Source: Candidatus Poribacteria bacterium
GTDB lineage: Bacteria; Poribacteria; WGA-4E; PCPOR2b
Direction: 5' to 3'
Assembly: GCA_965218095.1 (NCBI GenBank)
Contig: OZ244587.1
Location: 3,008,001 to 3,072,000 of the forward strand
DNA length: 64,000 bases
Numbering within the stretch: position 1 is the stretch's first letter; each line of letters opens with the position of its first letter. The notes below the pieces were generated by a model, which did not search any database, was not told the origin of the DNA, and was given only the letters and a program-made list of their open reading frames with translations. Shown here in pieces: positions 52,433 to 53,026 of the stretch. The position numbers and the translations under genes were made by a program.

Positions 52433-52461
52433 TTGACAGATTCTTCCACGTATGATAAAAT
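52433..52461 (+). promoter_or_regulatory. Near-consensus sigma70 promoter of the tRNA locus
   Basis: TTGACA-17 bp-TAAAAT with an extended -10 TG. Confidence 0.8.
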
Positions 52462-52493
52462 CACAAATACGAATGCCTGATTATTGGCACAGT

Positions 52494-52567
52494 CGGGGCG
52501 TAGCGCAGTCCGGTTAGCGCGTTCCGATGGCTCGGAAAGGTCGAAGATTCAAATCCTCTCGCCCTGA
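52494..52567 (+). ncRNA. tRNA-Pro mimic 1 (anticodon arm replaced by TTCCGA-TGGC-TCGGAA)
   Basis: First 28 nt identical to the tRNA-Pro; 3' part AGGTCGAAGATTCAAATCCTCTCGCCCTGA differs at 3 positions. Confidence 0.8.
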
Positions 52568-52591
52568 TAGATTCACTTGGATCAATATTTG

Positions 52592-52848
52592 ATGTTCTAT
52601 GTTTATATTCTTCAAAGCCTGAGAAAGATGGGAGTTACTATATTGGGCAGACTCACAATGTATCTAGTAGCCTTGAACGCCATAATGGTCGGCGGTGGTT
52701 AGCGACTCGATCCAAGGCTCCGTGGGAATTGGTTTATACCGAGTCATTTTCAACAAGGAGTCAAGCGGTCAGACGGGAGCGAGAAATAAAAAATTGGAAA
52801 AGTCGTCAAGCCATCGAAGTGTTGTTGAGTAATAATGACGGGGCGTAG
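52592..52848 (+). pseudogene. Small GIY-YIG nuclease (UPF0213/SLX1-like), frameshifted near 52620
   Basis: MFYVYILQSL / KDGSYYIGQT..LERHN..T...PWELVY.E.F.TRS.A..RE..IK.WKS; removing 2 nt restores the frame. Confidence 0.88.
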
Positions 52849-52913
52849 CGCAGTCCGGTTAGCGCGCGTGCTTCGGGAGCACGAGGTCGGAGGTTCAAAT
52901 CCTCTCGCCCCGA
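52839..52913 (+). tRNA. tRNA-Pro(CGG)
   Basis: Full cloverleaf: CGGGGCG/CGCCCCG, GCGC D-stem, CGTGC-TTCGGGA-GCACG, GGAGG-TTCAAAT-CCTCT; CCA not encoded. Confidence 0.96.
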
Positions 52914-52952
52914 TATTTTATTTACTTCGGATTCATCAACGGACCTTGCAGG

Positions 52953-53026
52953 AGGGTCGTAGCGGAGTTTGGTTAGCATGTTCCGATAGGATCGGAAAGG
53001 TCAGCGGTTCAACTCTTTTCGCCCGA
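52953..53026 (+). ncRNA. tRNA-Pro mimic 2 (anticodon arm replaced by TTCCGAT-AGG-ATCGGAA)
   Basis: AGGGTCGTAGCGGAGTTTGGTTAGCATG-hairpin-AGGTCAGCGGTTCAACTCTTTTCGCCCGA; more degenerate than mimic 1. Confidence 0.7.

Follow-up and report, generated by a model that had tools for sequence, protein, structure and literature searches.

A probable remnant of a selfish, hairpin-bearing GIY-YIG nuclease cassette at a tRNA-Pro gene of a Candidatus Poribacteria bacterium

SegB of phages T4 and T6 is a free-standing GIY-YIG homing endonuclease that is encoded within a tRNA cluster, cuts tRNA genes at the T-loop-like sequence RAWTSGAAC, is needed for the recombination-dependent tandem amplification of tRNA-Tyr together with segB, and is linked to tRNAs of many isotypes (PMC13096335). 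By our own reading, RAWTSGAAC is the T-loop sequence as it appears on the other strand. Here we describe a bacterial chromosomal locus for which phage SegB appears to be the nearest analogue and experimental precedent. The locus lies in a stretch of 64,000 nucleotides (hereafter, the window) from a Candidatus Poribacteria bacterium whose genome is a single 6.35-Mb contig (GCA_965218095.1, contig OZ244587.1); the window spans positions 3,008,001–3,072,000 of that contig. Within it, an intact tRNA-Pro(CGG) gene is accompanied by a frameshifted gene for a minimal GIY-YIG nuclease and by two tRNA-Pro-derived copies in which a hairpin occupies the position of the anticodon arm.

The resemblance to SegB lies in tandem units of a tRNA-like sequence plus the nuclease gene, in breakpoints within the T loop, and in the many tRNA identities involved. 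SegB reportedly has extra domains and is phage-borne, whereas the nuclease considered here is a bare catalytic domain of 84 amino acids encoded on bacterial chromosomes, with relatives in just 5 of 50,697 phage records. Arm-replacing hairpins and pseudo-tRNA copies, both present here, are not described in the accessible part of the SegB report (PMC13096335). A minimal GIY-YIG architecture without accessory domains is also what the available part of the 2006 survey of the GIY-YIG superfamily gives for prokaryotic Slx1-like proteins, and that part mentions tRNA only for a fusion with TrmH (PMC1564403). In a full-text literature search, with subscription journals and preprint supplements outside its scope, we found no description of tRNA-linked small bacterial GIY-YIG genes or of arm-replaced tRNA copies; an earlier, sequence-only reading of the window had likewise known of no named system with this layout. 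Like repetitive extragenic palindromes (REP) and their associated tyrosine transposases (RAYT), the system described here combines short, mostly extragenic palindromes in tens to more than 100 copies with a single-copy, often-lost nuclease gene flanked by the same palindromes. It differs from them in that the enzyme is a GIY-YIG protein, not an HUH/Y1 transposase, and in that hairpins border Y1 genes only sporadically. Elements that integrate into tRNA genes likewise leave a partial tRNA duplicate beside the intact tRNA and form an insert bounded by tRNA-derived repeats. Unlike those elements, the insert here is only ~340 nt long, a foreign hairpin and not a shared attachment (att) core is found at the junction, and no open reading frame (ORF) of at least 150 amino acids between 41.5 and 64 kb of the window matched an integrase or transposase family.

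We consider it probable that the locus preserves, in decayed form, a selfish cassette of homing type that resides in tRNA genes and is built around a minimal GIY-YIG nuclease of the UPF0213/SLX1-like type, that the hairpin is a cis element of this cassette, and that the tRNA-Pro-like copies, which the sequence-only reading had called mimics, are repeats of tRNA origin that recombination driven by the nuclease has left behind and not functional tRNA-like RNAs. The parts of such a cassette would be the 84-amino-acid nuclease, direct repeats derived from the tRNA on one side of the gene or on both, and a hairpin T(C/T)CCG...CGG(G/A)A (here TTCCGAT..ATCGGAA) in place of a stem-loop, usually the anticodon arm, of the extra tRNA copy. 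This reading is favoured because the cassette is present or absent at the same site, recurs at paralogous and unrelated tRNAs, is bounded by tRNA-derived repeats, forms arrays and deletions, and encodes a nuclease under purifying selection that is nonetheless frequently lost. These cassettes appear to constitute an undescribed and widespread class of tRNA-gene residents. A selfish tRNA-targeting module had been proposed from the sequence; the recurrent unit of nuclease, tRNA and hairpin copy, variable among close relatives, bears that part out, while the dispersal of the hairpin through genomes, nuclease-free ones included, had not been foreseen.

Sequence reading and scanners applied to positions 52200–53400 recovered every feature listed in the sequence-only reading to within one base (copy 2 ends at 53027), in the order promoter, tRNA-Pro-like copy 1, broken GIY-YIG gene, intact tRNA-Pro(CGG), tRNA-like copy 2 and recO, all on the plus strand. 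The palindromes in place of both anticodon arms and the lack of an integrase were also as it had described. The promoter of the tRNA-Pro operon is of sigma-70 type (52433–52461; TTGACA, a 17-nt spacer, TG and TAAAAT), with 11 of 12 consensus positions plus the TG; relatives, even those whose site is empty, keep its -10 region, TATGATAAAAT, ahead of tRNA-Pro or ahead of the first copy. Copy 1 (52494–52567; 74 nt), defined by the Rfam tRNA model, ARAGORN and alignment to tRNA-Pro(CGG), is identical to that tRNA over nucleotides 1–28, has its anticodon arm exchanged for the hairpin TTCCGA-TGGC-TCGGAA (52522–52537), and carries two mismatches in the T stem. It scored 40.8 bits with the Rfam tRNA model (gathering score 29), and ARAGORN reported it as "tRNA-??? 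(gg)" with a 6-nt loop and a 2-base "anticodon", so that it lacks the 7-nt anticodon loop of a tRNA (RF00005). The nuclease pseudogene (52592–52848) begins with an ATG at 52592 and ends with a TAG at 52846–52848, which coincides with positions 8–10 of the intact tRNA-Pro(CGG) (52839–52913; called by ARAGORN, Rfam 66.7 bits), the only CGG isoacceptor of the genome. Copy 2 (52953–53027) aligns to tRNA-Pro with decayed acceptor, D and T stems and has the hairpin TTCCGAT-AGG-ATCGGAA (52981–52997) at the anticodon-arm position; neither ARAGORN nor the Rfam tRNA model called it, even at E ≤ 10. It is the orthologue of a copy found downstream of tRNA-Pro in other genera. A third copy in the genome (4,578,248–4,578,326, minus strand; arm TTCCGATCT-AGG-AGATCAGAA) is the first gene of another tRNA operon, which includes tRNA-Pro(UGG).

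Read through its frameshift, the nuclease gene exceeded the PF01541 cut-off of 22.6 bits with a score of 45.8 (E = 7.9e-12). The best matches to solved structures were to the UPF0213 proteins BH0048 (PDB 1zg2; E = 5.5e-12) and EF2693 (1ywl; 8.5e-7) and to the structure-specific endonuclease SLX1 (4xlg; 5.7e-4), and NCBIfam returned only sub-threshold matches, all to group I intron endonucleases. We know of no function for UPF0213 proteins. The protein belongs to the minimal UPF0213/SLX1-like GIY-YIG nucleases, being a stand-alone domain with intact orthologues of 84 amino acids, nearly all of which is spanned by the single Pfam domain; a joined DNA-binding domain, as in homing endonucleases, is absent. 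The catalytic roles of Tyr, Tyr, Arg and Glu in GIY-YIG domains are known from I-TevI and UvrC. In 47 proteins from many phyla, Y5, Y16, G18 and E62 were invariant, and R26, H30 and N31 were conserved at 90% or more. Relative to five intact orthologues from relatives, the window gene has two extra bases at 52622–52624 that change its frame after 10 codons; it keeps the conserved catalytic residues 3' of the frameshift, and it is not translatable as one protein. Because of this +2 frameshift the nuclease, for which the pseudogene is the single copy in the genome, is dead in this bacterium.

The five intact genes of the family gave ratios of nonsynonymous to synonymous divergence (dN/dS) of 0.05–0.38 over ten pairs, with dS of 0.21–1.8, which indicates that, where intact, the nuclease is kept by purifying selection. 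Over equal divergence, the stems of the adjacent hairpins show no difference from one another. Within the phylum the gene is patchy: it was found in 13 of 176 genomes at E ≤ 1e-8, with the close form confined to three genera, and 9 of the 29 genomes of the window's family hold it. More distant paralogues, in another family of the phylum and in five other genomes, adjoin neither a tRNA nor the hairpin, and the tRNA-linked clade is thus a distinct subgroup.

A search for the arm pattern over the 176 genomes of the phylum gave tRNA-like matches only in the window's own family. Matches to the strict hairpin pattern in two other families (L004, L018–L024 and L029) were not tRNA-like, and we took them as chance. 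By a whole-locus search and then a whole-length profile, the tRNA-Pro locus was obtained for all 29 family genomes. Hairpin-bearing copies were present in 17 of them, while five genomes of the genus that has arrays showed a bare site consisting of promoter, tRNA-Pro, terminator and recO; a single tRNA was seen in six further genomes, and one locus was uninformative. Filled, empty and deletion forms all occurred inside one genus, which is the same-site presence and absence expected of homing genes. The filled and deleted forms comprised copy–gene–tRNA, tRNA–copies–gene–copy (with 11+1, 4+2 and 1+1 copies), tRNA–copy, copy–tRNA with a gene remnant, and truncated copies. The truncated copies, which break off in the T loop (GGTT|) and are joined there to the final ~30 nt of the ORF, are deletions of the gene. 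Tandem runs of at least three full-length copies occurred only in three gene-carrying genomes (G043, 11 copies; G050, 4; G053, 3), and in the 107-nt array unit a copy is followed by a 32-nt trailer similar to the 5' leader of the gene. One other genus has the cassette at tRNA-Pro(UGG). Upstream copies invariably agree, in their 5' part, with the local tRNA at one D-loop base, which is T where that tRNA is CGG and C where it is UGG.

These comparisons bear directly on the proposal that the copies are ordinary leftovers, either tandem tRNA-Pro duplicates decaying neutrally or att duplications of a departed integrase-borne element, with the nuclease as an unrelated passenger. tRNA genes are classic integration sites, parts of which become duplicated, and the copies have indeed decayed in their acceptor, D and T stems. 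Against such an origin, every additional tRNA-Pro-like unit found by the whole-length profile bears the hairpin and none has the original anticodon arm. In this respect, the hairpin was itself part of the search pattern by which 14 of the 17 copy-bearing genomes first came to light; the whole-length profile could detect other arms, as it did for real tRNAs. In addition, the swapped arm is the best-conserved portion of the copies, integrase and transposase families had no match in the region given above, and the same layout is repeated with other tRNAs in other phyla. We therefore regard simple leftovers as highly improbable.

The wider distribution was assessed with the best 80 of 265 nuclease relatives, fetched with their flanking DNA, of which 73 lie outside this phylum; by their record titles they range over Poribacteria, Patescibacteria groups, Bacteroidota, Desulfobacterota, Dehalococcoidia, Gemmatimonadota and Legionella. 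ARAGORN placed a tRNA within 150 nt of the gene at 50 of the 80 loci (43 of the 73 outside the phylum), and the chance expectation of such adjacency, estimated from 51 tRNA-type genes in 6.35 Mb, is ~0.5%. Nearly all of the tRNA calls (71 of 73) were on the strand of the gene, and they represented ~16 identities. When each neighbouring tRNA was compared by BLAST with its own locus, incomplete second copies of it emerged on one flank of the gene or on both, with 100% identity over positions 1 to 27–29 and/or from 45–47 to the 3' end. In pairwise alignments the arm between the duplicated parts was swapped for a hairpin with the common base TCCCG...CGGGA, as in TCCCGAT-GCAT-ATCGGGA at tRNA-Met and TCCCGTCA-GGAA-TGACGGGA at tRNA-Asp; at some loci it was the D arm, the T arm or the variable region that had been exchanged, not the anticodon arm. 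The base shared over phyla is T(C/T)CCG...CGG(G/A)A. The tail of the ORF is encoded by whatever flanks it locally, be it the tRNA 5' end, a leader, or a D arm plus hairpin, and in-frame stops were present in 4 of 46 relatives checked.

When we searched for hairpins with a perfect stem of at least 5 bp in near windows (-90 to -15 and +225 to +330 of the ORF) and in outer flanks (beyond -450 and +700), 29 of the 73 loci had one in the near windows, at 2.65 per kb compared to 0.066 per kb in the outer flanks, a ~40-fold difference. The distal stem varies among loci yet stays complementary in hairpins that were found by requiring a perfect stem. Single genomes were seen in which the best-scoring gene copies sit at different tRNAs, for example tRNA-Pro(GGG)–gene–"tRNA-???(gg)" in a Chitinophagaceae bin. 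Tandem pairs of a small GIY-YIG gene with a period of ~350 nt occurred at two Bacteroidales loci (L042 and L043, about 1500–2100), where each gene is followed by a tRNA-Pro-like copy with the D and/or T arm swapped for CCCCGC...GCGGGG or TCCCG...CGGGA. The sequence-only reading had proposed to look for nuclease homologues enriched near tRNAs, for variation in the identity of the host tRNA, for the hairpin substitution at other loci and for empty sites in relatives, and these comparisons found all four. In a Bacteroidota bin (L079), two identical 97-nt tRNA-Pro-like units lie at 1379–1475 and 1740–1836, on either side of the nuclease gene; each has two substituted hairpins, and there is no intact tRNA within 1.5 kb.

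That reading had also offered, as its alternative, that the copies are tRNA-shaped decoy or guide RNAs. In a fuller form of this explanation, the copies would be functional RNAs in which the tRNA body is a scaffold for processing or stability and the hairpin an RNA ligand, serving as an antitoxin or regulator of the nuclease, in the manner of type III toxin–antitoxin systems, or as a decoy for tRNA-directed enzymes. The copies do lie in a tRNA operon behind a strong, conserved promoter, and one relative has 11 identical units before the nuclease gene, a layout reminiscent of toxI–toxN; copy arrays precede the gene in relatives, and the nuclease is not ToxN-like. The complementarity of the hairpin stems despite variable distal parts would also suit an RNA, as would the excess of G-T over A-C mismatches on the sense strand (8 versus 2), a count too small to tell RNA from double-stranded DNA and one in which several cases adjoin the loop. 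The stems themselves argue otherwise. We aligned 25 distinct full-length family copies and counted cloverleaf pairs against 500 shuffles, leaving aside profile matches shorter than positions 8–70 (seven truncated and two variant copies). Cloverleaf cells were paired in 85.9%, compared to a shuffle mean of 86.0%, and 324 of the 500 shuffles reached the observed value; only two cloverleaf pairs had changed on both sides, so that compensatory change lends no support to a tRNA-like cloverleaf. The acceptor stem was paired in 77.7%, with pair 1-72 broken in 15 of the 25 copies, and T-stem pair 51-63 was broken in 12. The hairpin helix, in contrast, was paired in 98.3%, with five of its seven pairs never varying, which agrees with the earlier statement that the hairpin is better conserved between the two window copies than the rest of the copy.

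Folding gave a similar picture. Copy 1 forms a cloverleaf-like fold whose stability does not exceed that of shuffled sequence (z -0.22), and no cloverleaf fold was obtained by folding for copy 2 or for the array unit of a relative. The 5' part of the tRNA that lies 3' of the gene has undergone the changes GGG to GGT, TAG to TAA and GAC to GAT, which are silent for the end of the ORF and yet disrupt tRNA pairs. With cloverleaf pairs at shuffle level and pair-breaking changes silent for the ORF, the copies behave as tRNA-derived DNA repeats, and constraint is confined to the hairpin and the reading frame. That the copies come and go among close relatives, and that the hairpin is retained in nuclease-free genomes, speaks further against functional tRNA-shaped RNAs, which we hold to be quite unlikely. 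Two narrower ideas concerning the loops were rejected. tRNA-Pro usually has G37, and copies 2 and 3 as functional tRNA-Pro(AGG) would have A37, broken acceptor and T stems, and loop lengths that differ between orthologues; a loop that preserves the identity elements of prolyl-tRNA synthetase (G35 G36) was dropped because the loops of relatives are AG, GA or GAG.

Contigs assembled from four metatranscriptome runs of one study, with a depth of ~4, cover 52348–52889 of the window (52348–52628, 52400–52779, 52556–52835 and 52599–52889). They bridge copy 1, the gene and the tRNA, as co-transcribed RNAs would require, but begin upstream of the -35 box and hence derive from read-through transcripts or carried-over DNA. 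The contigs establish sequence and polymorphism, not transcription from the tRNA-Pro promoter or the processing or abundance of the copies, and nothing follows from stretches that they leave uncovered. Six DNA-type runs contained 64–80% of the sequence words. They come from a separate data set and reproduce the junctions between copy 1 and the GIY-YIG gene and between that gene and the tRNA, without an insertion or deletion at the frameshift; the arrangement is therefore not an assembly artefact, a concern that the sequence-only reading had raised. A loop variant of the copy 1 hairpin with one extra A after 52528 was present among them, as were joints that omit either the gene (52564 to 52828) or copy 2.

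If the locus is a decayed selfish cassette, its activity can be envisaged as follows. The nuclease would bind or cut DNA at or near the hairpin, or at stem-loops of tRNA genes, and the break would be repaired by recombination between the tRNA-derived repeats. Such repair could carry the cassette over to other tRNA genes of that type, amplify units of tRNA-like sequence plus nuclease gene in tandem, and yield deletions. With its arm swapped, the extra tRNA copy would do no harm and might also withstand the nuclease. Because the cassette lies between the promoter and tRNA-Pro(CGG), the tRNA would be transcribed through it, and cleavage by RNase P would then cut off the stop codon of the ORF. What is left in the window would be a promoter-proximal pseudo-tRNA, a pseudogene that is transcribed through for the sake of tRNA-Pro(CGG), and an old pseudo-tRNA downstream. 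The hairpin may be the binding or cleavage site of the nuclease, a role suggested by its association with the gene.

Several observations weigh against this scheme. The predicted protein has no DNA-binding domain, in which it differs from characterised homing endonucleases, and a simple model of attack on the tRNA gene, with the hairpin as protection, leaves the sparing of the adjoining intact tRNA unexplained. The role of the hairpin is assigned by association, and its proposed action could be in DNA or in RNA. Among the best 80 of 265 relatives, 30 had no tRNA within 150 nt, and 44 of the 73 outside the phylum had no hairpin in the near windows. The rarity of relatives in phage records, given above, and in plasmid records (3 of 72,556) means that no vehicle for transfer between cells is evident. 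Most of the genomes are metagenome bins, and related genomes are not independent. Finally, the hairpin is found dispersed, in 3–139 copies, in 23 of the 29 family genomes, compared to 9 with the gene. The genome richest in hairpins, with 139, lacks the gene, and its tRNA site is empty; this abundance in gene-free genomes indicates that the hairpin is maintained or spread without a resident nuclease.

The dispersed form, TCCCGAT-N2-4-ATCGGGA, occurs 18 times in this genome; two sister genera have 20 and 3 copies, and each of the 20 genomes of the array genus has 11–139. Three genera without tRNA copies have none, and a reversed control pattern had none in any family genome. Copies in this genome share only ~20–30 nt, and 11 of the 18 lie outside open frames of at least 130 amino acids. 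Of the 31 genera across the phylum, only the four with tRNA copies reach three copies or more, apart from two single genomes. In five genomes of other phyla, TCCCG-N4-12-CGGGA and its reversed control gave 41/10, 19/12, 40/62, 89/22 and 28/14 matches, a control that any palindrome beats, and dispersal is clear only in this bacterial family. Examples in this genome are at C1 300240, 422098, 644899, 3520489 and 6017098, and the window has none besides those in the two tRNA copies. The flank TTCAAAGCAAC is common to some of the dispersed hairpins.

Two relations of the dispersed hairpin to the cassette are possible: one like that of REP and RAYT, with an often-lost GIY-YIG enzyme, or a palindrome family independent of the nuclease. 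In the latter case, a REP-like palindrome, spread by another enzyme or kept for a function of the host, would have landed in a redundant tRNA-Pro duplicate, and the nuclease would be another occupant of tRNA-proximal DNA. The dispersed copies, numerous in nuclease-free genomes, short and often outside open frames, are what such a family would look like. One of four Y1-transposase loci in this genome (L172, C1 626507–626836, IS200/RAYT-like) also has TTCCG...CGGAA hairpins on both sides within ~350 nt; at another (L171) hairpins are only found 0.6–1.3 kb away. In four genomes of the array genus, 2 of 18 Y1 loci had a nearby hairpin, about the number expected by chance, and we rejected a RAYT link for the dispersed hairpin since Y1 genes are not consistently flanked by it. 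Elements independent of the nuclease would not be expected to share the same hairpin base at fixed distances from the ORF in unrelated phyla, nor does the restriction of expansions to the genera with tRNA copies favour them. We judge an independent palindrome to be unlikely.

The other relation would make the minimal GIY-YIG nuclease and the T(C/T)CCG...CGG(G/A)A hairpin a new hairpin-directed mobile system, a GIY-YIG counterpart of REP/RAYT or of IS200/IS605 insertion sequences. Such a system would act on extruded DNA stem-loops, would have the arms of highly transcribed tRNA genes as its natural targets, and would copy its own hairpin into those arms; in some lineages it would seed more than 100 palindromes genome-wide, and it would itself travel as a 340-nt cassette under a borrowed tRNA promoter. 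We regard this as possible, though doubtful.

If the selfish-cassette reading is right, a large clade of unexplained UPF0213/SLX1-like mini-nucleases would gain a role as selfish occupants of tRNA genes across many phyla, candidate phyla among them, and the finding of GIY-YIG-driven amplification at phage tRNA loci would be extended to bacterial chromosomes. It would also account for a class of peculiar output from annotation pipelines, namely "tRNA-???" calls, pseudo-tRNAs and arrays of tRNA-like units in tandem, and would provide a natural case of a tRNA arm exchanged for a protein-associated hairpin. The conserved hairpin of 14–20 nt is a concrete and cheap substrate for tests of recognition by the nuclease.

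Between the tRNA locus and recO lies a long inverted repeat with a perfect stem of ~21 bp followed by a T run (53036–53094, plus strand), conserved in the family and probably the terminator of the tRNA operon; its motif TGGGACAATGGAACG is kept in relatives, and the repeat gives spurious matches to miRNA families in Rfam. The flanking host gene recO (53111–53866, plus strand; RecO_N and RecO_C domains, with the likely start at an ATG after GGAGG) is outside the cassette. Directly 3' of it is a type III restriction–modification pair, with a res helicase subunit and a mod methylase (TypeIII_RM_meth), at 54116–56716 and 58412–60472. Elsewhere in the genome, an Arg–His–Pro–Lys–Leu operon contains a 75-nt tRNA with the anticodon UCA (C1 4577829–4577903, minus strand, outside the window; L030, 1896–1970). 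It is closest to tRNA-Arg(UCU), at 75% identity, and has a counterpart at the equivalent place in another genus (L006, 2072–2144). The genome also has a normal 94-nt tRNA-Sec elsewhere, and the UCA-anticodon tRNA may be one that reads UGA.

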